Assembly: GCF_036365525.1 (NCBI RefSeq)
Contig: NC_090380.1
Span: 72,343,757-72,407,756, forward strand
Length of the DNA stretch: 64,000 bases
Source of the DNA: Heterodontus francisci
Lineage: Eukaryota
Direction of reading: 5' to 3'
Both the position numbers and the translations under genes were made by a program. Within the stretch, counting starts at the first letter, position 1. Every line of letters begins with the position of its first letter. Positions 5,665 through 63,600 of this stretch are shown one piece after another. The notes below the pieces were generated by a model that worked only from the letters and a program-made list of their open reading frames with translations, had not been told where the DNA came from and ran no database searches.

Positions 5665-5998
5665 GGCGGCACAGTGGCGCAGTGGTTAGCACCGCAGCCT
5701 CACAGCTCCAGGGACCCGGGTTCGATTCTGGGTACTGCCTGTGCGGAGTTTGCAAGTTCTCCCTGTATCTGCGTGGGTTTTCGCCGGGTGCTCTGGTTTC
5801 CTCCCACATCCAAAAGACTTGCAGGTGATAGGTAAATTGGCCATTGTAAATTGCCCCTAGTGTAGGGAGGTGATAGGGAATATGGGATTACTATAGGGTT
5901 AGTATAAATGGGTGGTTGTTGGTCGGCACAGACTTGGTGGGCCGAACGGCCTGTTTCAGTGCTGTATCTCTAAATAAAAATAAAATAAAAAAATAAAA
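5665..5998 (+). mobile_element. HE1-like V-SINE (elasmobranch tRNA-derived SINE)
   Basis: A-box (tggcgcagtgg) and B-box (ggttcgattc), V-domain 'ttctccctg...gggtgctc.ggtttcctcccac', CR1-type 3' tail and A-rich end; three copies in the window. Confidence 0.85.
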
Positions 5999-22918: not shown

Positions 22919-23228
22919 TGGGGTGGCACAGTGGTGCAGTTAGCACCACAGCTCCAGCGACCCGGGTTCAATTCTGGGTACTGCTTGTGCGGCGTTTGCA
23001 AGTTCTCCCTGTGACCGCGTGGGTTTCGGCTGGGTGCTCCGGTTTCCTCCCACAGCCAAAGACTTGCAGGTTGATGGGTAAATTGGCCATTATAAATTGC
23101 TCCGAGTGTAGGTAGGTGGTAGGATAATTGGGGGAAGGTGGGGATGTGGTAGGGAATTAATGTAGGATTAGTATAAATCGGTGGGCCAAAGGGCCTGTTT
23201 CAGTGCTGTATCACTCTATGATCTATGA
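22919..23228 (+). mobile_element. HE1-like V-SINE
   Basis: Homologous to 5665-5998; interrupts CR1-C. Confidence 0.85.
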
Positions 23229-35647: not shown

Positions 35648-36986
35648 TATCTCTTCAGACTACTAGAAAAGATCGGGTGTCCACCAAAGCTACTAAGTAT
35701 CATCACCTCATTCCATGACAATATGAAAGGCACAATTCAACATGGTGGCTCCTCATCAGAGCCCTTTCCTATCCTGAGTGGCGTGAAACAGGGCTGTGTT
35801 CTCGCACCCACACTTTTTGGGATTTTCTTCTCCCTGCTGCTTTCACATTCGTTCAAGTCCTCTGAAGAAGGAATTTCCCTCCACACAAGATCAGGGGACA
35901 GGTTGTTCAACCTTGCCCGTCTAAGAGCGAAGTCAAAAGTACGGAAAGTCCTCATCAGGGAACTCCTCTTTGCTGACGATGCTGCTTTAACATCTCACAC
36001 TGAAGAGTGGCTGCAGAGTCTCATCGACAGGTTTGCGGCTGCTTGCAATAAATTTGGCCTAACCATCAGCCTCAAAAAAACGAACATCATGGGGCAGGAC
36101 GTCAGAAATGCTCCATCCATCAATATTGGTGACCACGCTCTGGAAGTGGTTCAAGAGTTCACCTACCTAGGCTCAACTATCACCAGTAACCTGTCTCTTG
36201 ATGCAGAAATCAACAAGCGCATGGGTAAGGCTTCCACTGCTATGTCCAGACTGGCCAAGAGAGTGTGGAAAAATGGCACACTGACACGGAACACAAAAGT
36301 CCGAGTGTATCAGGCCTGTGTCCTCAGTACCTTGCTCTATGGCAGCGAGGCCTGGACAACGTATGTCAGCCAAGAGCGACGTCTCAATTCATTCCATCTT
36401 CGCTGCCTCCGGAGAATACTTAGCATCAGGTGGCAGGACCGTATCTCCAACACAGAAGTCCTCGCGGCGGCCAACATCCCCAGCTTGTACACACTACTGG
36501 GTCAGCGGCACTTGAGATGGCTTGGCCATGTGAGCCGCATGGAAGATGGCAGGATCCCCAAAGACACATTGTACAGCGAGCTCGCCACTGGTATCAGACC
36601 CACCGGCCGTCCACGTCTCCGCTTTAAAGACGTCTGCAAACGCGACATGAAATCCTGTGACATTGATCACAAGTCGTGGGAGTCAGTTGCCAGCGTTCGC
36701 CAGAGCTGGCGGGCAGCCATAAAGACAGGGCTAAAATGTGGCGCGTCGAAGAGACTTAGTAGTTGGCAGGAAAAAAGACAGAGGCGCAAGGGGAGAGCCA
36801 ACTGTGCAACAGCCCCGACAAACAAATTTCTCTGCAGCACCTGTGGAACAGCCTGTCACTCTAGAATTGGCCTTTATAGCCACTCCAGGCACTGCTTCAC
36901 AAACCACTGACCACCTCCATTGGTGGTCAATGCATTGAGACAATCCATTGTCTCTCGAGATAAGGAGGCCCAAAAGAAAAGAAGAA
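35648..36986 (+). mobile_element. RTE LINE, 5'-truncated, with open 395-aa RT C-terminal ORF (35723-36910)
   Basis: GVKQGCVLAP, LFADD, FTYLGS, RWLGHV and C-terminal zinc-finger-like motif; (gaa)n tail. Confidence 0.92.
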
Positions 36987-39852: not shown

Positions 39853-40101
39853 TGTGATGAGAAACTTTTTATGCAACATAAATGAGATGCGTGGAGTCCA
39901 GGTTGGTAAAGATCTCAGACAGATTTATTAAACAGCTAAACTATTATACAGTACTGAGCTCACTATTTACAGGATCTGCCTATTGGTGTTACAGTTACAG
40001 AGTGAGATTGGCATGTAGTCACATGACTGCATCCTGGCACGTAGCTCATTAGCATACTAAGATCTTAAAGGGAAATCACTCTTAAAGGTAATCACACAAC
40101 A
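39853..40101 (-). repeat. 3' LTR of myc-carrying element, copy 1
   Basis: 249-bp direct repeat of 42676-42914; AATAAA on the minus strand; abuts the PPT at 40102-40114. Confidence 0.9.
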
Positions 40102-40237
40102 TCCCCCTTCTTTCCAAAGATCAGTTTCATATGCTAAAAGCAAAAATGTATGAAATGAGATAACATCAAAATTATTTACACATGGATAAAGATTATGAAC
40201 TTTACCAATATAGAGGCTCAAAAGTTCATATATCATC

Positions 40238-40700
40238 TCAGTGATTTGACAACTCTTGCTCGGGGAATTTGTGTCTCATCCCTTGCTGTACTTTCTGAAA
40301 TTGCTTCCTCCCTGCATTTGGCTTCTGTTGCTCTGCCTTCAGGCTGCTAATATACTGTGTTGCTTTTCTGAAGATGACCACCTTTGCGGCCTTGGAAAGC
40401 TCTGGCACCTCATCTCGAAGAGCTAACCAACAGTTCTCCAACTCATTCCTCCTCTGCCTCTTCAGGGCATTGCGTGTCCTTCACCTCTCCTCATCCTCCG
40501 GGTCTGAGGGCTTGGGGCTCAAGGTCGAGGAATTGTTGGGGGAGGTGTATTTGGTCTCATGGTGGTACCTGTCTGTTCTGGCTTGTTGTGGTGGTTCTCT
40601 AGAGAGTAGAAGTGAAGGCGCAGCATAGTTGTGCTCTTGCTGGATTTCCAGACTGCACTGTTTGATGCTGGTCAGAGTCTGCGAGCGGGTTTCAGTCCTA
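40238..40700 (-). pseudogene. myc: Myc-family C-terminal fragment (Myc box IV + bHLH-LZ) inside the LTR element
   Basis: Translates IKQCSLEIQQEHNYAAPS...[65 protein letters not shown]...; compare c-Myc HQHNYAAP...[44 protein letters not shown]. Paralogue not resolved. Confidence 0.9.
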
Positions 40701-41936
40701 TTTCCCTTTGGCAATGCTCTCGTGGATGGTTATGATGTTGAGATCCTTACATACTGGTAGCCCTGCCACTGTTGGTCCGCTCGTGTCTACCAGGTAGAAC
40801 GTTTGTGGTTTCCATGCTGACTTGCCATAGCTGCATTGCATTGTTAGAGTGTCACTGCAAGGGATGGGTGAGCCATTGTATACAGATAATTTTGCAGTTG
40901 TTGGTTTTATCATTGTCTTCTAACGACTCCGATACATATATTTGAGGATTCATACTGGTAGAATATTTGCACTAGCGCCCATGTCAATCTTGACCTTGAG
41001 TGTATGTTTGCCAGCTTTCTTTAGGCCCTTGATGTTGATAGTGGCAAAAGCTTCCAGTTGTTTTGACTTCATCAACGTGATGTGTCAGGTTCACAATGTG
41101 GAATGCTTGTTCATCTTCTGTCTGAGAACGGCTTCTCTCTGGGTCTTGTCTCAGGTCTGTTTTGCCATGGATTTCATGTATTGGCTTGCGTTTACGCCAT
41201 TCTCTGGCACTTAACGTGTTACTGTTGCCCTGTTGTCTGTTTGTTTGCATCCGATCGTCTCTTCAGGCTGCATCTTTGGAGATAGAATTCCTGCATATGT
41301 GGGCCAGTGTCCTTTTGCACTGCACACCTTGCACAAGTCACGAAATGTAGGACAGCTTCACCGTGAGTGGGACAGAACGCACTTACCACACAGGTGGCTG
41401 CTCTTTTTGACCTGGTTATTGTTCTGATACCGTTGGCTGCACTTATTGCTTGCAGGTGCTGTTGTCCAGCTACAATGGCTTCGCATTTCCTGCCATCTTC
41501 CAGCAGTGCATGAATGCCGTGACCTTTCTTTTTCCCCCGAAAGGTCTTTCTGAAATGCTCCATTATTCGGTCTGACAGCTCAGCTTCTGAGAAATCACAT
41601 TCGTTGCTCTTACTACAGCATCTGCTGATGAACTGGTCAATTGATTCCCGTGGCTGTTGCCTGTAGGACATCAGTTCCAGGCGGTGAATTCTAAAATTCA
41701 GTCTCAATCGGAGCTGAACTTCCAGCACTTTCCATATCTTTGCAGGATCTTTCTGGTCCTGTTCAGATAATCCAGAGGTATTGATTCTGTGCAATCCTTC
41801 ATTTCCAATCAGCCTGTTTTTCTGGTTCTCTAATTACTTGGTCTGTAAAGCATAATTGCATTCTTTGTTTGAACAATGGGAACTCAGGTAGGATATCCAT
41901 GACCTTTCAGTTCATGCTGGGAAGTTTGGTATCCAT
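40700..41936 (-). pseudogene. Degenerate Gypsy-type gag + aspartic protease, copy 1
   Basis: MDTKLPSMN..LFKQRMQLCF; FRIHRLELMSYRQQPRESIDQFISRC..K..ECDF; knuckle CKVCSAKGHW; protease ID(M)GAS.NILP...YNGSPI...FYLVD. Confidence 0.8.
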
Positions 41937-42660
41937 TTTCCTGCTGTTCGGTTACTTTAAAACATGCTTTAAGACTTTGCTTTATGACTTGCTTTATACT
42001 GCTTTCCCTTTCAAGGAACTCTCGGCTGCTTTGATTGACAGCAGCAGGTGTTTAGCAGTGCTTGTCTGTTTATCTAGCTTCCAACCTCTAGTCTGGCTGT
42101 TTATGCAGCTGTGCAATAGGCACTTCAAGTGCTTTTTAAAAAAGGGTTTGTTTATACAGCCGTTCAAGAGGCAATTCTTTGTGCTTGAGTGGTTTTAATG
42201 TTTTTTAAACTGTGACTGCTGAATGGAAGTTCTTCACGCTAGAGTGATTTAATGGTTTGTTTTTAGCTTTAGCACCGAACTGCTTGAATGGAGGATTCCC
42301 ACGCTTTCATTGTTGGGCGCCTCCTGTAATGGTGGTGATCTGATCAGCCTGGGGGAGGAATCGGGTCTTCCCCACTTTTCTTCTCCTACTGAACCTTTGA
42401 AAAGAATTGATTTTTTTTCCCAAGCACTTCGCAGCTTGTTTTTCTTTAACTGGGGTTCCTATAATGACGGCACACTGACTCACCTGCTCACAGTGACTGA
42501 TTTGCAGCGTGTCATTTAGCTCTGTCTTCTACAGCTGGAGGTGAGTTTTCTTATCTTGTTTACACTGTTTGGGGCAGTGTTCCTTTTAACTTTCTTTTAG
42601 CTGTCGGTAGTTTTTAAAGCTATTTTCCTGTGTTCTTCAATCTTGGATTCTGTCTTCTCA

Positions 42661-42675
42661 CCACGGCTGCCACCA
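42661..42675 (-). promoter_or_regulatory. Primer-binding site complementary to tRNA-Leu
   Basis: TGGTGGCAGCCGTGG directly after the LTR, versus TGGTGGCAGCGGTGG expected from the vertebrate tRNA-Leu(AAG/TAG) 3' end; copy 2 has TGGTGGCAGCTGTGG (51515-51529). Confidence 0.8.
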
Positions 42676-42914
42676 TGTAATGAGAAGCTTTTTATGTTGT
42701 CTGATGCAACATAAATGAGATGCATGGAGTCCAGGTTGTTGAAGCTCTCAACAGGTTTATTAAACAGCTAAACTATTATACAGTGCAGAGCTCACTATTT
42801 ACAGGACCTGCATCTTGGTGTTACAGTTAGAGTGAGACTGGCATGTAGTCACATTAGCTCATTAGCATACTAAGATCTTAAAGGGACATCATCCTTAAAG
42901 GCAATTACACAACA
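42676..42914 (-). repeat. 5' LTR of myc-carrying element, copy 1
   Basis: Direct repeat of 39853-40101; about 19 substitutions plus 3 indels by manual alignment. Confidence 0.9.
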
Positions 42915-46022: not shown

Positions 46023-46366
46023 GGGCGGCACAGTGGCGCAGTGGTTAGCACCACAGCCTCACAGCTCCAGCGACCCGGGTTCAATTCTGGGTACTGCCTG
46101 TGTGGAGTTTGCAAGTTCTCCCTGTGTCTGCGTGGATTTTCTCTGAGTGCTCCGGTTTCCTCCCACAAGCCAAAAGACTTGCAGGTTGGTAGGTAAATTG
46201 GCCATTATAAATTGCCCCTAGTATAGGTAGGTGATAGGGACAGGTGGGGATATGGTAGGAATATGGGATTAGTGTAGGATTAGTATAAATGGGTGGTTGA
46301 TGGTCGGCACAGACTCGGCGGGCCGAAGGGCCTGTTTCAGTGCTGTATCTCTAAACTAAACTAAAA
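46023..46366 (+). mobile_element. HE1-like V-SINE
   Basis: Homologous to 5665-5998; (ctaaa)n tail. Confidence 0.88.
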
Positions 46367-47115
46367 ACTGAAGCTAGTAGCTCCCGAAGACAGGGTGAAG
46401 TAACTTGGGATAAGTTAAAAGCACTGTCCATGGAGGAGTTGAGGAAAATGGCTGAACAGTGTGGGATCACTGTACGTGGCAAGGCTAAGAAGTCTGAATT
46501 CCTAAGGCTAGTGGCCAACCATTTTTCCCTTGAATATGAAGAAGCAGAAATAGGGTTAGAAGTAGACTCCAACAGGGTATTGCTAGCAAAGATACAATTG
46601 GAACAGAGGAAACTTGAATTAGAAGACATGGAAAGAGAAAGAGAGAGACAGGAGAGAGAGAAAAAAAGAGCCTTCCAGAAGGAACACGAAGACAAAAGAG
46701 AGGCAGGAGAAAGAGAGAGAGAGTACCTTCCAGAACGAATGAGAAGAAAGAGAGCTGAAGCGGCTTGAGTTAACTAGGGGGCGACAGAGTACCCCCAGTG
46801 AAAGCATGGCCAAGAAGGAGAAGCATAATTCAGGGTTGTGTACAGAATTGTTAAAACTATCTCAATGTTAAAACTAAAATTTAATGAGGAAGATGTGGAA
46901 GAATTTTTTTGTGTCTTTTGAGAAACTGGCAAGGCAGCTAAAATGCCAGCCTGAGACCTGGCCTCGTTGATTCTAAAGCAAGCTAACCAGAAAAACCCAT
47001 GAGGTTTATACACTGTTTTCAGGTGAGAGTTCATCATATTATGAACTGACAAAAAATGCTATCCTCGGGGCATATGAATTAGTACTTGAAGCCTATCGCC
47101 AAAAGTTTAGAACCT

Positions 47116-47822: not shown

Positions 47823-49112
47823 CCCAAGAAGCAAGCTAATCAAAGTTATCTGGAGTTTGAAAGAAATAAGCAGCTGGCTTTTGACCAGTGGCTGAGGGCT
47901 CTTAAATTACAGCTCAGCTATGAGAATCTCACGGAAGTAATTCTGTTAGAGGAATTTAAACACTCACCAAAAGCAAGACCTACTTACAATCAATGACTTT
48001 ACAGCGAGCATGAAGAACAGTAACTAAAACCATCTTCAGATAGAGTCTCAAATTTTCCACTTTATTTCTTCTGCTCTTTTTGTCTCTAGCTGCATGTGTG
48101 TATCGTGTATGCATGCTAGCTTGGGTGCGTCACGTATTCGTAGGCGTTAACCGAATTAGAGTTTATGTTCTTTTTTCTTTAAACTTAAGAAAACCTGTTT
48201 GGCTAGTTTCTTTGCCTTATAATTGGAAGTTAGGGGACGAGGATTTGCTAAGGGGGAGCTAAAAAAAGTGTGTTTAAAATTAAACCCTGTTACGGTAAGA
48301 TCAGGTGAAGGCTGAGAGGGAACCCTCGACCCCTTTCTCCTCTGGTCATAACAATGACCCAAGGGGTTTTACACAGGTTCTAACCCCTCACTGTGCTATG
48401 GCTGGTGAGGTGGATTTAAACAGTTAAATCTTTGATTTGATTGTGGCAAACAAGTATGTAACAGTAAGATTTCTGGTAAGGGGCACGGGCACCAGGAAAC
48501 ACCAAATTTCTTGGCCTCACAATGGCATGGATCAGCAACCGGCAAGGTCCTGTCATACTATATGAGGATATCCTTGATCTTCTTCTTGGAAGCTTCTTCT
48601 ACATATTTCTGGTGGTATGCCACCAAAGCTTTAGAAATGGATTGATGAACAGCATAGATTTGAGCTACATGAGCACTGCCCTTCACACAAACTCCAATGT
48701 CGACTCAAGGATCGGTGGATTTAAACAATCTTGCTGGAGGGGAAGGTGATTGGGAGAGCGCTAACTGTAGGCCCGCAGTGCTATGTAATGAGTTCTTTTC
48801 TGTTGTCTGATGCAATATAAATGAAATGCATGGAGCCCAGCTGAAGATCTCAAACAGGTTTATTTACAGCTAGCCTATCTTACAGTACAGAGCTAACTAT
48901 TTACAGAACCTTACTCTGGGTGTTACAGTTGCAGAGTAACTCTGGCTTGTAGTCACATGATTACTTATTAGCACACTAAAGGGACATCACTCTTAAAGGC
49001 AATCATACAACATCCTCCTTCTTTCCAAAGATAAGTCTCATATGCTAAAACTAAAAATACATAAAATTAGATAACACCAAAATTATTTACATAGGTATAG
49101 ATATTGTGAAAT

Positions 49113-49640
49113 TTACAAATATAGAGGCTCAAAAGTGCATATATCATTTTGGTGCTTTGACAACTTTTGCTCAGAGAATCTGCATCTCATCTGTTGCTGT
49201 TCTTTCTGAAGTTTCTCCCTCTCTGCATTCAGTTTCTGTTGCTCTGCCTTCAGCCTGCTAACATACCCTGTTGTTTTCTTAAGATAACTATTTTTGAGGC
49301 TTCCTCATTCTTGGAGAGTTCTGGCACCTCATCTCAAAGAGCCAACAGATAATACTTCAACACATTCCTCCTCTGTGTCTTTAGGACATTGTGTGTCCTT
49401 CGCCTTTACTCATCCGCCTGGTCTGAAGGCCTGGGGCTCAGGGTGAAGGACTTGTTGGGGGAGGAGTACTTGGTCTCATGGAGGTACCTGTCTGTTCTGG
49501 CTCGTTGTGGTGCTGGCGGTTCTCTCGAGAGCAGAAGTGAAGGCACGGCATAGTTCTGCTGTTGGTGGGTTTCCAGACTGCACTGTTTGATGTTGATCAG
49601 AGTCTGCGAGTGGGTTCTGGTCCTTGGAGATTTCCCCTTG
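49113..49640 (-). pseudogene. myc: Myc-family C-terminal fragment (Myc box IV + bHLH-LZ), copy 2
   Basis: IKQCSLETHQQQNYAVPS...[53 protein letters not shown](fs)TGYVSRLKAEQQKLNAEREKLQKEQQQM. Confidence 0.9.
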
Positions 49641-50799
49641 GCAATGCTCTCATGGATAGTTATGATGTTGAGGTCCTTACACGCTGGTAGTCCTGCCACC
49701 GCTGCTCCGCTCATGTCTACTAGGTAGAATACTTGTGGTTTCCATACTGACTTGCCATAGCTGCATTGCATTGTTAGAGTGTCACTGCAAGAGATGGGTG
49801 ACCCATTGTATGCAGATAACTTTGCATTTGTTGGTTGTATCATTGATTTCCAACAACTCTGGTACTTATCCTTCAGGATTCGGACTGGTAGGATATTTGC
49901 ACTAACGCCAGTGTCATTCTTGACCCTTACTGTACGTTTGCCAGTTTTCTTCGGGCACGTGATGTTAATGATAGCAAGCTTCCATCAGCGTGTATTAGCT
50001 TGCATTTCCGCAGGTCTCTGGCGCTTTCCTTGCTGCTGTTGCCCTCTGCTGCCCCTGCCTTCTGTTTGTCTGTGTCGTGCTGCAGCTTCAGGCCGTGTCT
50101 TTGGAGACAGATTTCTTGCATAGGCGGGCCCAGTGTCCTTTTGCACTGCATGCCTTGCACAGGTCACGAAATGCAGGGCAATTTTGCCATGAGTGGGACA
50201 GACCCAGACCACACTTAGCACACAGCTTGCTTGCTCATCTTGACCTGGTTATGGTGCAGATACTGTTGACTGCATCTAGTGTTTGCAGGTGCTGTTGTCC
50301 AGCTACAATGGCTTCATACTTCCTGCCATCTTCCAGCAGCACATCATTGCTGTGACCTTTCTTTTTCCCCCAAAAGGTTTATCAGAAACACTTCAGTGGG
50401 CGTCGATACAGTCACTAGCTCCATTATTCTATCTGACAACTCAGTTTCTGAGAAGTCACATTTGTTGCCCTTACTACTGCATTTACTGATGAACTGGTCT
50501 ATTCATTCCTGTGGCTGTTGCCTGTAGGACATCAATTCCAGGTGGTGATTTCTAAAATTCACTCGTTATCGGAGCTGATCTTCCTGCACTTTCCATATTT
50601 GGTCTTCGTCAGGTATTCCAGAGGTGCTGACTCTGTGTAATTTCACATTTTCAACTGCTATCAGAATTTTTACAGCCTGTTTTTCTGGTTCTGCAATCAC
50701 TTGGTTTGTAAAGCGTAACTGAATTCTTTATTTGAACAACTGGAACTCAGATGGGTTATCAATGACCTTCCAGTTCATGCTGGGAAATTTGGTATCCAT
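49640..50799 (-). pseudogene. Degenerate gag + aspartic protease, copy 2
   Basis: Collinear with copy 1; CX2CX4HX4C knuckle near 50118-50159; DTG catalytic motif. Confidence 0.8.
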
Positions 50800-51571
50800 C
50801 TTCCTGCTGTTCTTTTGCTTAAAACTTGCTGTAGGACTGGTTCTATGACTCTGCACTGTTTCCCCTTTAAAAGAACTCTCTGTTATTTAGACTAGCTGCT
50901 TTGATTGACAGAAGCAGGTGTTTACTAGTGCTGTGTGTTTATCTTGCTTCCAGCACTTAAGCCTGTTCTGTTTACATCACTGTTCAATAGGTAGCTTAAT
51001 GCATTTTTTTAGAGTTTTTTAAGGTCTTCACTCGAGAGTGGTTTTAATGTTTTTTTTCCTGTGGCTTCATGAATGGAAGCTCTTATTCACGCTTGAGTAG
51101 TTTCATGTTTTTTTAAACTTTGGCTGTGTAGATGAAGGCTGTGCCATGTTCTGGGTTTTCCCACCTTTTTTCTAATGGACGCTTCCTGTAATCGTGCTGA
51201 CCTCAATCAGCCTGGGAAAGGGGTTGGGTCTTCCCATGTTTTTTTCCTACATGGAACTTTTGAAAAAAAAAACAATCTTTTGAAGGTCTTCAAAGCTTTT
51301 TTTTAAAGCAGTATCCCTCGCTCATCCGCACAAAGACTCACCTGATTTATTCGCAACCTGCTGCTCTGTGCTCTGTCTTATACAGCTTGAGGTAAGTTCT
51401 TTTTTCAATATTTGAGCCAGTATTTTTCTTGAACTTTCTCCCTGCTGGCTATAGGAAAGGTAGTTTTCAGAGCTGTTTTAACTGTGGTTTTCAATCTCAG
51501 ACTGTGTCTTTTCACCACAGCTGCCACCATGTAATGAGTTCTTTTATGTTGTCTGATACAACGTAAATGAG

Positions 51572-52331
51572 GGCTGGAATTTTATGGCCCCCCAACGAAT
51601 GGGCTGGTGGTGGGGGGTGCCGAAAAATTGCGTGCAGCGCGGTAGGTGGGGGGAGCCATTCCCAACGCCTTCCCACCTCCACTGCAATTTTATACGTGGT
51701 GGGTGTGGCGAGAAACGGCCCGCCCACTCTGGACCAATGAAGGCCCTTATGTGGCCAATTAACTGCCACTTAAGGGCCTCCTCCCACCGCTGCTGGTATT
51801 TTACCCACAGCTGGATGGCAAAGGCCCCAAGAACCCCGCCTGATAAAACCAGGCGGCCTTCTTGTGGGCTGGGGATGGGCCCACCTGATCAGACCCCATG
51901 TGCCCCACGGGGGAGGGGGGGGGCCAGTCGCAAAGCCCCAACCGCCCCATCACACAACATTCCCCACCAAGTACCCCCCCCCCCTCCCCCGACTTTGCCT
52001 CACTGGGGCCCGGCCAATTATTCCCGGCAAGGCTCCAAAAACTTACCTGTCTTCCGGGGCCGTCCTTCACCTTCTGATGGCTGGGTGTAGTCCCAGCAGT
52101 GACCACAGCACCCGATGGCACTGCTGGGACAAAGATCTGCCGGCCGCTGATTGGCTGGCAGCCCCATTAGGCGGGACTTCCTGCCTCAAGGAGTTGGGTC
52201 CCACCCAAGACCAATTAAAGGCCTGGGGAGCAAAAAATCCCGGCATGGCTCCCCAGGCCCGGCAGAGGCGGGCTCACCACCGACTTTTCAGCTGGTGGGC
52301 AGGGTTTCCCGCCCAATGTAAAATTCCAGCC
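51572..52331 (-). mobile_element. PIF/Harbinger-like MITE inserted in the 5' LTR of copy 2
   Basis: Perfect 13-bp TIR GGCTGGAATTTTA / TAAAATTCCAGCC; 3-bp TSD GAG (51569-51571 / 52332-52334); LTR sequence resumes after it. Confidence 0.85.
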
Positions 52332-53382
52332 GAGTTGCCTGGAGTCCAGTTGGTTGAAGATCTCAAACAGGTTTATTTACAGCCAGACTATTATACAGTA
52401 CAGAGCTAACTATTTACAGAACCTTAGTCTGGGTATTACAGCTGCAGAGTGATGCTGGCTTGGAGTCACATGACCACGTCCTGGTACTTAGCTCATTAGC
52501 ATACTAAGATCTTAAAGGGACATCACTCTTAAAGGCAATCATATGACATGGTCTTCGAACTCCTTTTTAAAAAGTACCTTTTTTGTGATGGCGCCAGACA
52601 TTTTTTAAAGATTTCGTGTTAGGCCACTCATGACATTGTTATCATGATGCAAAATACCCATTCTGCACAGTGCAGCCCAATTTCAGGAAGTGATCCTGAA
52701 ACAGGCATTAGGCACTCTAGCTGCATATGCAAAAAACCCTAATGCTTATTTCTGCCTTTAGCCCTGAACACCGATATTTCAGTCTTTACCAGTGTGGTGG
52801 CCAGCTCACTTTCACCCGCCATATTGGACACTTAGGAACCAGTTTTACATCTGTAAAATGGGTGCACCCTCAACAGTTTCTAGGCCCATGAGTTGTCTAA
52901 CACAAGAAAACGTGAACATGAAAAATACATTTGGTCCATCAAGTTTGTTCCTCACTCAGAACATGTACAAATTCCGTATCTTGGGCATTAACCAGCCCAG
53001 CATATATCCCTCAAAAGTAAATCTCAAAACATAACACACAGCATTTGCATAGGCTGGTGGAATTATATTCTATATAACGCTGTGGGTGAAATTTTACAAC
53101 TTAGCGCCACTGGCGCGGTTTAGCGCATGCTGAAAAATGGTCCATGTTGCGATTGGATGTTGTGAATACCATGTCCACACTCCTATGAAGCCATGCATTA
53201 GACCATTGATCACTATTGGTCGAAAGCTGAATTGAATACATTCAGGGAGACTTTGAAGTGTATGATCTGATGATGCAAGGCTTGCATACAGAGAGCAAGC
53301 ATGTGCTTTGCTGATCATCCAAGCTTGACTGGATTCAGTGTGAAATCAAAGTTGCCATTAATCTGAAGGTTTATGAGGCAGT

Positions 53383-53570
53383 ATCATCCCCAGCATATAC
53401 ACCCTACTGAGCCAGCAGCGCTTGAGATGGCTTGGCCATGTGAGCTGCATGGAAGATGGCAGGATCCCCAAGGACGCATAGTACAGCGAGCTTGTCACTG
53501 GTATCAGACCCACCGGCCGTCCATGTCTCCGCTTTAAAGACGTCTGCAAACGCAACATGAAGTCCTGTGG
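53383..53570 (+). mobile_element. RTE internal fragment
   Basis: Matches the IPSIYTLLSQ..RWLGHV..EDGRIPK region of the other RTE copies. Confidence 0.8.
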
Positions 53571-57127: not shown

Positions 57128-58485
57128 ATTCATTGATCTCACCAAAGCCTTTGACCTCGTCAGCAGACGTGGTCTCTTCAGACTACTAGAAAAGATCGGA
57201 TGTCCACCAAAGCTACTAAGTATCATCACTTCATTCCATGACAATATGAAAGGCACAATTCAACATGGTGGCTCCTCATCAGAGCCCTTTCCTATCCTGA
57301 GTGGCGTGAAACATGGCTGTGTTCTCGCACCCACACTTTTTGGGATTTTCTTCTCCCTGCTGCTTTCACATGCGTTCAAGTCCTCTGAAGAAGGAATTTC
57401 CCTCCACGCAAGATCAGGGGGCAGGTTGTTCAACCTTGCCCGTCTAAGAGCGAAGTCCAAAATACGGAAAGTCCTCATCAGGGAACTCCTCTTTGCTGAC
57501 GATGCTGCTTTAACATCTCACACTGAAGAGTGCCTGCAGGGTCTCATCGACAGGTTTGCGGCTGCCTGCAATGAATTTGGCCTAACCATCAGCCTCAAGA
57601 AAATGAACATCATGGGGCAGGACGTCAGAAATGTTCCATCCATCAATATTGGCGACCACGCTCTGGAAGTGGTTCAAGAGTTCACCTACCTAGGCTCAAC
57701 TATCACCAGTAACCTGTCTCTAGATGCAGAAATCAACAAGCGCATGGGAAAGGCTTCCACTGCTATGTCCAGACTGGCCAAGAGAGTGTGGGAAAATGGC
57801 ACACTGACACGGAACACAAAAGTCCGAGTGTATCAGGCCTGTGTCCTCAGTACCTTGCTCTATGGCAGCGAGGCCTGGACAACGTATGCCAGCCAAGAGC
57901 GACGTCTCAATTCATTCCATCTTCGCTGCCTCCGGAGAATCCTTGGCATCAGGTGGCAGGACCGTATCTCCAACACAGAAGTCCTCGAGGCGGCCAACAT
58001 CCCCAGCTTGTACACACTACTGAGTCAGCGGCACTTGAGATGGCTTGGCCATGTGAGCCGCATGGAAGATGGCAGGATCCCCAAAGACACATTGTACAGC
58101 GAGCTCGCCACTGGTATCAGACCCACCGGCCGTCCACGTCTCCGCTTTAAAGACGTCTGCAAACGCGACATGAAATCCTGTGACATTGATCACAAGTCGT
58201 GGGAGTCAGTTGCCAGCGTTCGCCAGAGCTGGCGGGCAGCCATAAAGACAGGGATAAAATGTGGCGAGTCGAAGAGACTTAGTAGTTGGCAGGAAAAAAG
58301 ACAGAGGCGCAAGGGGAGAGCCAACTGTGCAACAGCCCCGACAAACAAATTTCTCTGCAGCACCTGTGGAAGAGCCTGTCACTCTAGAATTGGCCTTTAT
58401 AGCCACTCCAGGCGCTGCTTCACAAACCACTGACCACCTCCAGGCGCGTATCCATTGTGTCTCAATATAACGAGGCCCAAAAGAA
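57128..58485 (+). mobile_element. RTE LINE, 5'-truncated, with open 395-aa ORF (57246-58433)
   Basis: Near-identical to 35648-36986; starts at the FIDLTKAFD motif. Confidence 0.92.
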
Positions 58486-60258
58486 TCATGCATTCCTCAA
58501 TAAAGCTCCTGTGATTGCTCAGTGAGTTTGACCAAGAGGAGCAGGCCAATTTGCTCTTCATCCAAACTAATTTATGATGCATTTACAACATATGTTTTCA
58601 CACTGACTCTAAACTTCTGCATTGTAAATTAGCTATCAAGGTCCAAATTGACCCAAATGCAAAATGGAATGAGACTTCCTTCTCACAGAGACTCAAATTG
58701 CTCAGTCCTGACTTTGAGTTCAAGCTGCATTTCTAATTGCAGTGTCAGTGCCAAGCGAAACCAGTCATAACTAGAATTCAGACAGTTGTGGTGTGAATGT
58801 ACCCAAGGCAGATTTCAACCAGGCATGTAGTAAGGATATCACAACTGGCCTTAACACCCCTTATTTTCAAATGGGAAGTCAGTTATGGTTTATCCAGTGA
58901 CTCTTGCTGCGAAGTGCGTGCGCATGCACATGTGTGTGTGAGAGAGAGACACACAGGTAGGTTTGGACAGGATTGAACTTGGCTGCATTGCTACCCACAG
59001 TAAAGTAGCTGTCAATATTCACAGCAAGGGTTTACACATGAAGAACAATCACTTGCTTGTGGGTGCCAGCAGCAACTGTTCTCCAGCAAGGTGTTAGGCA
59101 TCTTCAGGAGGAGAGACAAGAACATTGGCCAGAGGAAGAAAGTGTATTCCTTACTACCTTTAGGTCAACCACTTGAAGACAGAACCTTATGTTAGATTGA
59201 AGTGGTATTTACATCAGGGAGAAACCTGTGCACCACTCACAAAGTTTGATCGAGCAGAATTTGGCATCTATTTTATTTTTTAAAAAGCCAGCATCAAAAT
59301 TGCATTTATATGGGTTGAATTTCTGAAAGCATTTTTCTAATCGTCTGCTGTAACTTTGCAAAAGACCCAGGGAAACCCCAGAGAAACAGTGTAAACCCAC
59401 ACAGAAATTCAGCCACAGTGTTCTTCACATCATCACAAAGTTGATTGTCACGCAATAGGATACTTCCTCCTCTAAGCAACATAACAGCTACCCCAATCCA
59501 ATTGCCAGTGAGCTCAGATCCATGGCACGAAGTTACACAAAATGGCACATTAGTTATCAACAAATTGGAAGTCAATCTTTTATAGCAGCACTTCATATAT
59601 TTCTATTAATTTATCAACTGTTGTAATAAAATACTCTTAATTCCTCAAATAAACCCATCTTAAAAGGATTATGCTAGCTGTTTTCTAATTATGATCAATC
59701 CTTCGTACTTGTTACAAATTGTAATCCTATTCTGTCTAAAAGCTTAATGGTAAGTGCACTCTGGGTATGGTGTCAGAGCAGAAAGTCCCAGGTTCCTAGT
59801 CTGTGCAGTTAGATGACCTCAGCCAGGACTCCATACAAAGCACTAAAGATAGTATTATGCCCCTGGACAATAGAGGAAAAATTCTAATTGTTGTGTAGTG
59901 ACTGCTGGCAAGTGCAATAGTGTGGGCCTTGGGTAAGGACAGTGTCTCGCTGTCCTATAACTGCCCATTGTGTTTAAATAGTACACCAATACTTGCTGCC
60001 TAGATTGACATGTGAAGAATGCCTTGTTGGGTGAGGTCTCAGATGGTGGTTGGTGTTGATGGAATCCTATCCCAACGAGAGTTCCTACCATCAGAAGAGA
60101 AGAGAAACTTGGGGTGGGCAGGGGATGGGGGATGGGAGATTGTGGGTAGGAAAGAGGGAGGGAAGCAAAATTCAGATTTAAGTGCTTTGCATGTGTGGAT
60201 TGCATTTGGGAAATATCCTATCTTCTAACTATATACATATATAAATTCATCTTTTCAG

Positions 60259-60636
60259 GCATGTGCGCTGCTCAAAGACATGTCGAGGTACAGGAAGGTC
60301 CCCTGATCAGAGCAGCAGGATACCACATAACCATTTGGTGTAATGTGTCCGGATACTCAGGTTCCACACTGCAGAACTTTGAGTGGTCCATCTACCTGCC
60401 TTCTGCACCTGAAAGACAAATCCAGATTGTCAGCACGAATGATCCCGACTATCCCTACGCCGTTTATGGAAGCAGAGTACGGAATAAGGAGGTCTACGTT
60501 GAGAGAATTGATGGAGACTCAGCGCTGTTACACATTACCAATCTACAACTGGGAGATGCAGGGGAATATGAATGTCACACTCCTAACACAGAATCAACCT
60601 ACTGGGGATCCTACAATGCCAAGGGGAATCTGACAG
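60259..60636 (+). CDS. IGSF3: IGSF3 (EWI-3) exon encoding the end of the signal peptide and the first Ig V-set domain
   Basis: cttttcag| acceptor and |gtaagt donor, 378 nt, phase 1-1; QRHVEVQEGPLIRAAGYHITIWCNVSGY...FEWSIYLPSAPER...DAGEYECHTP...GSY.AK.NL matches recalled human IGSF3 QRQVTVQEGPLYRTEGSHITIWCNVSGY...DAGEYECHTP better than IGSF8. Confidence 0.9.
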
Positions 60637-63600
60637 GTAAGTGATACTTGCCTTTGCAGTGATTATCTTTGTTAATGTGATGCACAGCAGGTAATAACAG
60701 GGCAACATCACAAATGTGCAACATTCCCTTTGAAGAAGCAACAGGTTTTTAATAACATTGTCAGGCTGTATTTATTTCACAGAAGTTTCAGATATATATA
60801 GATGGAAGTTTCTACATTGAGGGTAGTTTAAAATTGCATTTAATAGGCTGGCAAACTTGTTTCCATTAGTTCTATGGATATAATATTGTAGTATCTCATT
60901 AATGAACCTTTCAATGACTATTAAAGTAGGTTTCTGTTTATTTACAGTGTCTGTACTCCAGCTTCAGTAAAATAGAACTTATGTGCTGGTCTCTCTTTAA
61001 AATTGATCCCAGGTGTGATACATTATTCAAAACAATTGGTTTCAGTAGTATTTCGCGTGCCAGGACTCTGAATAATGTGGTTCATCTGGGACCATTTTTA
61101 CAGGAGAAGGTGTCACTAATGTGAAAAACATGTAAAGATGCAAAAAAGATGCCACTACTTATGTTGAAGAAAATGTATTGTTTGAAAAATGCATTTCAGT
61201 ATTACACAGCTGCACACTTGAGAAACTTCAGTTTGTGTACAATTAACCATGAGTTTACTTTGGTATGAATAATGTTTGATTATGTCTAGATTGAATGAAT
61301 TTTCACTCCCATTCTATACCATTGCTTTCTTTCCCATTTGTGAGTTTGAAGCTTCACATATTTGGATAATTCTCTTCCATCTATCCTTCAGAGCTCTTAA
61401 ATTTCAGTCCAGGAGAGAAATCTGGTCTTAGAAACATAAAGATTTATGGCACAGTAGGAGGCCATTCGGCCCATTGTGTCTGTGTCTGTCTGTGATCAGG
61501 CTTCCCTAAACTACCAAGGTATCTAAGCTACAAATGACTTTGCAGTTCCAGCTAGTACAGTGGAACCAGGAGAAGAACCAACTGTAACGTGACCTTGTGG
61601 CTTGATACCTCAGCAAAGCCTCTTAAAAAAGCACTAGTTTCTGGAAGTCCAGGACTCTATATGCTTGCAGCGTGAGAGCAAACAGACTTGATTCCCAACT
61701 TTACTGTTCCCTCCCCTCCATATACACCGTAAAACAAGATTACTAATTCTATATGGTATATGTAGCGCAGACACAGCAGACCTTTGCCCGTGTGTATCTG
61801 AATTCAATATTGCTGTTGCTCAGCTGGCATTGCACCCTGATTTTTAAGGAACCTTAACACCTGTTTCAAATGGACACTCTGGATAGCTAAATGTTGCCTC
61901 AGCCAATGTGGTGTCCGGCACAATTCAAAAAATAATGGACAGGTAATGATCAACTGGCCAATCCAACCTGTCCACACAGTTGTGATGCTTTGTGTGATCT
62001 TTCATATGGGAAATTGTCAAAGACTTTGTGGAAGTTGAAATAAACTATAACATAGGAACTTCCGTTGTCGTATTTTGTTTATAATGTCTTAAATATGTCA
62101 ACATCATTTGTCAAGCAAGATGTTCCCCTCCTAAATCCATGCTTATTGTCACTTATTAAACTACTTCTATACAGGTCTTATCCTACCTGTTCCTTAGTAT
62201 ATTTTCCATTATTTAACCCAATATTGATATATGGAATATATAGCACTCTTTTTAAGTACAACTGCTTGTTTATGGGGAGATAGCTTATTAAAATGCTATT
62301 AGAAATTGTTCCCCTAAGAGTTATTTCTGCCATCGGTGGGCTTTCTTCCTTTGTGCTCCATCAGAAATGAATTCTTATGCATGTAAAAGCACCAGAAGTC
62401 ACATTGATGCTGCATTTTAATTGTTGTGCTGATGCCAGAAGCAGCCCAGACTTTACCAGTAGTGCTGCGATATAAATGAGGCAACTCTAATGTTTCCAGC
62501 AAGTAGGAGGTATTTTTTTTCCTTGTACTGCTGATGGTTTGCACAACCTGCCAACACTAACAGTGCCATGGGCTGCTATTTTCTTCTGGTTCCAGTCAAC
62601 TTCTCATGGAGGTTATTAACGTGCTTTTTTTTTTGCATTGCTGGTGTGGGGAAAGTACATGACCAGAAAGTCGGCGATCGCTCTTTGCATGCTGTGCATT
62701 GTCAGGAGTCAATCTGGAACATTAAAGTCATGAGCCTGGAGTTTCTGCCAGGTTGCACTGTTTTTCCAGCACAATTCATCCAAAATTGGCCAAACCAGCG
62801 CAAGAGATCAAATCAAAAGATTTCAGAAATGTAAGCACAAATTCCATCTAGCACTGATCAAGTCTATCTTAAAAAAAGGACTAGAAGCTGGCCCCACCCC
62901 AGACTGAATTAATCACCATTGGAAGTTTCTGCTAATTTGTGCCCTTTTGCATGCCTTTGAAGATGCTCTTAAAATTAAACTGGTTCTTTTGCAAGGACAC
63001 CAACTACTGTGCAATATAACTGGTAATTGGTTCAATGTAGTTTTTAAAATTAATTTTCAGTTATTTAAAACGCTGCCCAGCGTGATGGTTCGGCATGCAA
63101 ATGAGTTGGAGCAGAAAATTGAGGGAAAAAAACACTTCTCAAAACTGGCACAATTTTTGTATGTAGTTTTTCTATTACCTTCGGTGCTGTGAATTGTACT
63201 CCAATGTGTAATTGTGATGTAGTGCAAAATATTAGCAGGGTCAACATATTGCAGAACCACTTCTGTGGTATAAATGTAGAGGAAGGACTATCAATGCTGA
63301 CATAGTTACCTTTTATAAATGAGGTCTATAAAGTGACAGATGAACCATTTCCTGTAAATTGCACTCGGTCAGAAGCAGCTGTCCACTGCTTTTGTCTGTA
63401 CAGTTGCAGGCACTGTAGTAATGAGCTTTCTTTGAATAGATCAGTGTCTTGGCTGTCGTACTGTACATAAAAGATCACTTTTCCCACTCAATTTTGCAAA
63501 ATAAAAATTAAAAATGTAGTCACAGAAAATTCTATATAATTTAATAATTTGTCAACTGCCAAACACTGCTCGAGGCAGGCTACATTTCACACAAAATAGC

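Follow-up and report, generated by a model that had tools for sequence, protein, structure and literature searches.

The window analysed here, a stretch of 64,000 nucleotides from the shark Heterodontus francisci, contains two copies of an LTR retrotransposon in which a segment of the Myc-family gene mych is joined in phase to the retroviral-type protease. The reading that we favor, at a probability of roughly 0.62, is that of a germline-amplified, non-autonomous element carrying a disarmed and tolerated Myc passenger. A Mag-like Ty3/Gypsy element would have acquired the 3' two-thirds of a host mych mRNA through template switching during reverse transcription (PMC5131818), the mych segment taking the place of reverse transcriptase (RT), RNase H, and integrase. 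Initially the junction would have lain a few dozen residues into RT (the long form), and a later in-frame internal loss would have produced the short junction, at which protease and Myc adjoin. The parental Gag-protease-Myc (Gag-PR-Myc) product would have been translated as one chain. The element, which retains its LTRs, primer site, and purine tract, was copied through at least two successive subfamilies, presumably by the RT and integrase of a helper.

Both copies lie on the minus strand and have the order LTR, primer-binding site (PBS), gag, PR, Myc, polypurine tract (PPT), LTR, with LTRs of 230 to 255 bp ending in TG...CA, both priming signals, and a leader of about 730 bases. Copy 2 extends from LTR to LTR over positions 48784-52548. 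Its 5' LTR (51530-52548; about 255 bp, TG...CA), recovered by a two-piece LTR-LTR alignment, is interrupted by an insertion at 51571-52335 and abutted at its inner end by the PBS (51520-51529), which we take to be tRNA-Leu-like and which begins with the same 10 bases as that of copy 1. The broken gag (50100-50799), with a capsid region and Cys/His knuckles, was delimited by tblastn with full-length relatives and frameshift-aware alignment, its ATG at 50799 being read directly from the sequence. It is set apart, by a deletion together with a frame break near 49977-49990, from a complete aspartic protease (49649-49975, with the DTG motif at 49915), which was recognized by its identity to the protein P0013 and by fold searches. 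There follow the mych-derived segment in phase with the protease (49155-49648; stops at 49408 and 49336, frameshift near 49272), the PPT visible in the sequence at 49013-49026, and the 3' LTR found by LTR alignment (48784-49012). The mych segment corresponds to cellular residues ~201-360 and comprises box IV, a basic motif that we assume to be a nuclear localization signal (NLS), and the bHLH-ZIP region.

Copy 1 (39853-42914, LTR to LTR) has a 5' LTR at 42676-42914, identified by LTR-LTR alignment, with the PBS running inward from 42675 down; a gag at 41300-41936 with stops at 41909 and 41360 and breaks near 41810, 41400, and 41300; a protease at 40719-41050 with DMG at 40985 and stops at 40952 and 40922; a mych-derived segment at 40253-40718 with a frame break near 40699 in the Myc part and a stop at 40483; a PPT at 40102-40115; and a 3' LTR at 39853-40101. 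No RT, RNase H, integrase, or env was found between the LTRs of either copy.

The two LTRs of an element differ at 18 of 230 aligned bases in copy 1 and at 26 of 249 in copy 2 (about 8-10%), the coding regions of the two copies differ by ~15%, and their flanks are unrelated, from which it follows that they are two old and separate insertions. Numerous stops and frameshifts, at different sites in the two, mark both as dead. The flanking 5-mers, where a target-site duplication would lie, match at four of five bases for copy 1 and at three of five for copy 2. Segmental duplication of a single insertion was ruled out by the unrelated flanks and the 15% distance between the copies.

The surroundings are rich in other repeats. 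The sequence inserted in the 5' LTR of copy 2 (51571-52335) is a GC-rich element of ~765 bp with short terminal inverted repeats. Nested LINE fragments of several families, with endonuclease and RT domains, occupy 12300-39000, 53375-53570, and 57130-58490, and those at 35650-36978 and 57173-58485 are 96% identical. A short forward-strand frame at 46355-46768, which contains a 55-bp tandem repeat and encodes a Rho_N-like helical motif, is possibly the gag start of another element, and a SINE-like repeat of ~300 bp occurs three times (46024-46366, 5665-5985, and 22922-23184). An Ig V-set exon (60270-60640, forward strand; Pfam E 3e-8) followed by a likely splice donor has look-alikes in the Atlas that include IgSF3-type clusters; both elements lie upstream of this exon in antisense orientation and may be located within an intron of the gene.

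The original prediction, made from the letters of copy 2, was that protease and Myc share one open reading frame as part of a Gag-PR-Myc polyprotein. An ORF check located the claimed stop-free frame, 192 codons long, at 49984-49406 on the minus strand, and all the peptides quoted in that prediction are contained in it; when the bases of the 3.8-kb element were shuffled 1000 times, a run this long arose in three cases. The fusion point had been placed just past a complete protease and is indeed there, between 49649 and 49648, straight behind the retropepsin fold. Residues 113-192 of the frame are 79% identical to residues 200-280 of H. francisci mych. The frame is closed by the stop at 49408, just ahead of the basic region, and lacks the bHLH-ZIP, the bHLH and zipper lying beyond the two stops and the frameshift of the Myc segment. 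At its other end, its only ATGs (residues 48, 72, and 91) are all downstream of the catalytic DTG, and gag is cut off by stops at 50730, 50568, 50505, and 50237 as well as by frame breaks near 50365, 50100, and 49977-49990. Since the frame does not reach gag and ends before the basic region, copy 2 cannot make the polyprotein; that part of the prediction very likely holds for the parent only, for which the in-phase junction and the one-ORF relatives speak. Copy 1 has the same junction as copy 2 and runs in phase from protease into Myc for six codons before its own break, so that the two reading frames agree at the junction in both window copies, as they do in the gene model P0009. There is no stop between protease and Myc in copies 1 and 2, and no stop or frameshift common to the family was found there in the copies examined.

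The protease was modeled as part of the 192-residue frame, using 66 relatives. In the predicted structure, residues 1-110 have a mean pLDDT of 91-98 per block and the tail is disordered. Residues 1-112 form a complete retropepsin fold that matches the EIAV protease (Z 12.4, rmsd 2.1, 97 aligned residues), and Foldseek matched the domain to retroviral proteases with E 7e-5. It was the fold search that settled the identity of the domain: a Pfam search of the 192-residue frame gave no match, no protease family was assigned by Pfam in the 67 aligned relatives, and a profile search of PDB sequences returned Ddi1 alone (E 0.7-0.8). The best of 363 matched cluster representatives, P0013, is 52% identical to the copy 2 protease. 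The DTG motif that the prediction described as retained is present in copy 2 and replaced by DMG in copy 1.

Full-length relatives (e.g., P0049, P0057, P0133, and P0138) carry Gag-PR-RT-RH-IN on a single ORF, and the long protease matches also align to the window gag; env was not found in the single chains of these relatives. Mag elements are described as having one ORF and LTRs of 200-300 bp (PMC11117352). The backbone is thus probably that of a Mag-like Ty3/Gypsy element, a provisional label given from ORF layout and LTR length. As the clade is outlined in PMC11117352, the window elements resemble it in their short LTRs (230-255 bp) and Cys/His knuckles, and their nearest relatives do so in the single gag-pol ORF and the PR-RT-RH-IN order; they depart from it in having no RT, RNase H, or integrase. 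With gag and pol on one ORF, an in-phase addition past the protease would be translated together with Gag, and the parent element very likely made a single Gag-PR-Myc chain. In the window copies gag and protease never stand in one unbroken frame, and their continuity is taken from relatives that are 25-52% identical. No helper with RT is present in the window: no relative's RT or integrase matched outside the two copies, and the remaining RT frames are LINE-type. Among proteins of 418-2000 residues, 0 of 632 candidates matched, so that no intact long fusion was seen, which is weak evidence; nor did mych match any of the 147 hits other than Myc in the search of cluster representatives, and fusions were seen in the H. 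francisci set only.

When the read-through copy 2 frame was used as query, 7 of 122 candidate proteins matched, every one of them from H. francisci. One is the cellular mych (P0007); the others are six truncated gene models (P0006 and P0008-P0012) that NCBI calls myc-like or N-myc-like, and these lie on contigs of five different sizes. The six models were selected for being open, may contain predicted introns that go unseen, and were compared as protein sequences. Protease or RT-start residues precede Myc in five of them (pairwise E 6e-18 to 5e-3), the pairwise comparison revealing none in P0010. P0008 has the long junction, with protease, linker, and RT start followed by mych from about residue 123, and only a short protein-level overlap at the switch point; P0009 has the short junction of the window copies. 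Two further in-phase joins, with a protease-to-Myc span shorter than that of P0008, occur in P0006 and P0011; they may reflect additional internal deletions or introns introduced by gene prediction.

A tree of 23 C-terminal regions placed the eight element-like sequences in one clade with H. francisci mych (97/90), and the eight alone made up one side of a branch (78/77). By this tree the donor is mych, a fish Myc paralogue, and the nearest sequence is H. francisci mych; MYC or MYCN, suggested as donor by the NCBI names, was rejected. The Myc piece in the window may lie within one mych exon. Among the best 120 of 1349 mych hits, extra truncated copies came from H. francisci only, the other sharks and rays having one full-length mych each. 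This confinement points to capture inside the bullhead-shark lineage, with the proviso that differences in annotation could hide copies elsewhere. Re-copying of the element is recorded in the two independent insertions, the six more gene models, and the subfamily markers. As to the latter, shared changes at cellular positions 238 and 248 are found in five of the eight copies and appear to mark a younger subfamily; as all three short-junction copies are among these five, the short form most likely arose later than the long form.

The junction also bears on the proposal that the protease could release Myc. Release is plausible in the long form, which keeps the PR/RT linker, and doubtful in the short form, where Myc begins one or two residues past the protease end and the linker is gone.

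The Myc part is heavily altered. The motifs at cellular residues 42 and 101, which we take to be boxes I and II, are absent from all eight copies, and the short form has also lost the EEIDVV box. The N-terminal part of Myc is where the transactivation domain is located (PMC8227504). All eight copies have Lys in place of Glu290, and five of them have Arg in place of His286, although all 94 named cellular Myc-family proteins compared (20 unnamed rows were left out) have Glu and His, respectively, at these positions. They align with H359 and E363 of human Myc, which bond to E-box bases and whose replacement with Ala in a double mutant leaves Max binding intact, abolishes E-box binding, and leaves proliferation unsustained (10.1101/2020.05.04.076190). 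CpG decay looks unlikely as the cause of the Glu290 change, the base before the codon not being C in either window copy. A Lys of the NLS-like motif, which all eight mych orthologues from sharks and rays possess, is Gln in five of the eight copies and Glu in one. Since every copy lacks the activation boxes and has Lys where Glu would read the E-box, the Myc tail would be unable to act like v-myc.

We then determined whether selection had acted on the coding parts, comparing the silent differences between copies 1 and 2 in eight segments against a base- and CpG-matched null. The protease had 22 silent differences against 14.0 expected (P 0.01, or about 0.08 when corrected for the eight segments), an excess which suggests that the ORF was translated as far as the junction. 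No silent excess between the two copies was found in Myc (19 seen, 19.3 expected) or gag (19 and 17.3), nor was purifying selection detected in the bHLH-ZIP (11 and 10.7). Simple dN/dS ratios (0.35 for PR, 0.49 for Myc) were discarded because off-frame controls gave 0.59-1.30. Across the Myc part of the eight copies, changes were as frequent at invariant sites (78/372) as at variable ones (162/866; p 0.39), while held-out mych orthologues had changes at 0-1 of 47-48 invariant and 20-34 of 107-111 variable sites. In the bHLH, the copies differ from the cellular sequence at 76 of 419 positions and shark orthologues at 13 of 265. Of the seven majority-shared changes, four fall at the 47 of 158 sites that do not vary among 11 orthologues (P 0.12), and four of five do so (P 0.03) after the post hoc removal of two sites possibly changed in the cellular gene. 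Most of the divergence is best read as decay after insertion, and the power to detect selection in the parent lineage is low.

These results bear on three other explanations of the fusion. Any oncogene-like activity that the original prediction might imply found no backing: the activation boxes are absent, the E-box-reading Glu is changed in every copy, and no purifying selection was found on Myc. An MC29-like element, one that makes host cells proliferate by means of an active Myc cut free by the protease and carried in particles, is highly improbable, even with a layout that parallels the defective gag-myc viruses (as outlined in PMC13431497), a complete protease fold adjoining Myc, and a linker kept in the long form. 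The short form is without that linker, env is missing from the relatives' single chains, and an E-box-blind human Myc cannot sustain proliferation (10.1101/2020.05.04.076190). At the opposite pole, Myc may have been pure cargo, never usefully translated and in phase by chance, which spread as RNA with intact cis-signals. The lack of a selection signal in Myc and gag is what this would predict, gene models are biased to open frames, and re-amplified non-autonomous LTR-mediated retrocopies are common in the account of PMC5131818. Chance, however, would bring each of the long and short junctions into phase only one time in three, and it has to be set against the silent excess in the protease and the absence of a stop at the junction of copies 1 and 2; we regard this explanation as quite unlikely.

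A selected decoy is easier to entertain and still unlikely. Here a Myc tail that was translated, and released or exposed, would have been kept for its binding to Max while neither reading the E-box nor activating genes; the element would gain from weakened Myc programmes of the host, or a weakened defence, in germ cells, and the shared changes would be the stepwise tuning of the decoy. Such changes do fall at functional sites (Glu290, His286, and the NLS-like Lys) and lean toward invariant ones, both surviving forms keep the whole HLH-ZIP and the phase, and the human His/Glu mutant retains Max binding and, when over-expressed, has an inhibitory effect on growth (10.1101/2020.05.04.076190). Against this, the bHLH-ZIP shows silent differences at the expected number and the bHLH far more changes than in shark orthologues, and loss-of-function changes are equally expected from selection against toxicity or from drift. 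That a Myc paralogue captured by a vertebrate Gypsy element became a translated accessory protein, a Max-binding, E-box-blind decoy tuned across subfamilies and held in phase through two junction rearrangements, is thus a conjecture to which we give little weight beside the disarmed and tolerated passenger.

Capture of myc is a textbook retroviral feat. What the passenger reading would add is an env-less Gypsy that, in a shark germ line, took up Myc in phase behind gag-protease and spread the fusion, leaving a natural record of the losses that Myc needed in order to be tolerated: the activation boxes, the E-box contact, and perhaps nuclear import. At least six H. francisci models named "myc-like" or "N-myc-like" would be transposon fossils, which might else be read as an expansion of shark Myc. 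If the decoy were true, gag-myc capture would have a counterpart of opposite sign among retrotransposons, and a mobile element would be manipulating the germ-line Myc/Max network of its host. Among the papers listed by literature searches, subscription journals and repeat libraries (Repbase, Dfam) aside, we found no prior description of a germline-amplified Gypsy element with an in-phase Myc paralogue; by term search, the EDTA v2 preprint uses the horn shark as a benchmark only and has "myc" 0 times.

Omomyc, a C-terminal dominant-negative Myc, keeps the HLH-ZIP, as does the shark element. Gene capture by LTR elements and avian retroviral gag-myc capture (PMC13431497) are already known. LTR-mediated retrocopies (Tan et al. 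2016, PMC5131818), such as maize Bs1 and human HERV-K/FAM8A1, resemble the shark element in that a portion of a host mRNA stands in for part of the internal ORF between the LTRs and the resulting non-autonomous chimera is copied again; the cargo of the latter differs in being a Myc-family factor, in phase with gag-protease at two junctions and amplified via subfamilies, and the words "oncogene" and "shark" have 0 occurrences in the text of PMC5131818. With the avian viruses MC29, CMII, OK10, and MH2, as outlined in PMC13431497, it shares the plan of a replication-defective, helper-dependent LTR element with a myc-family gene behind gag; it differs from them in its Gypsy backbone, its state as germline fossils, its mych donor, and its kept protease, and its Myc has no activation boxes and a changed E-box residue. 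The engineered human Myc H359A/E363A (10.1101/2020.05.04.076190) is altered at the same two base-reading positions with the HLH-ZIP kept, whereas the shark form is a natural one, known from sequence, that has basic residues at these positions, is without the N-terminus, and is fused to a protease.
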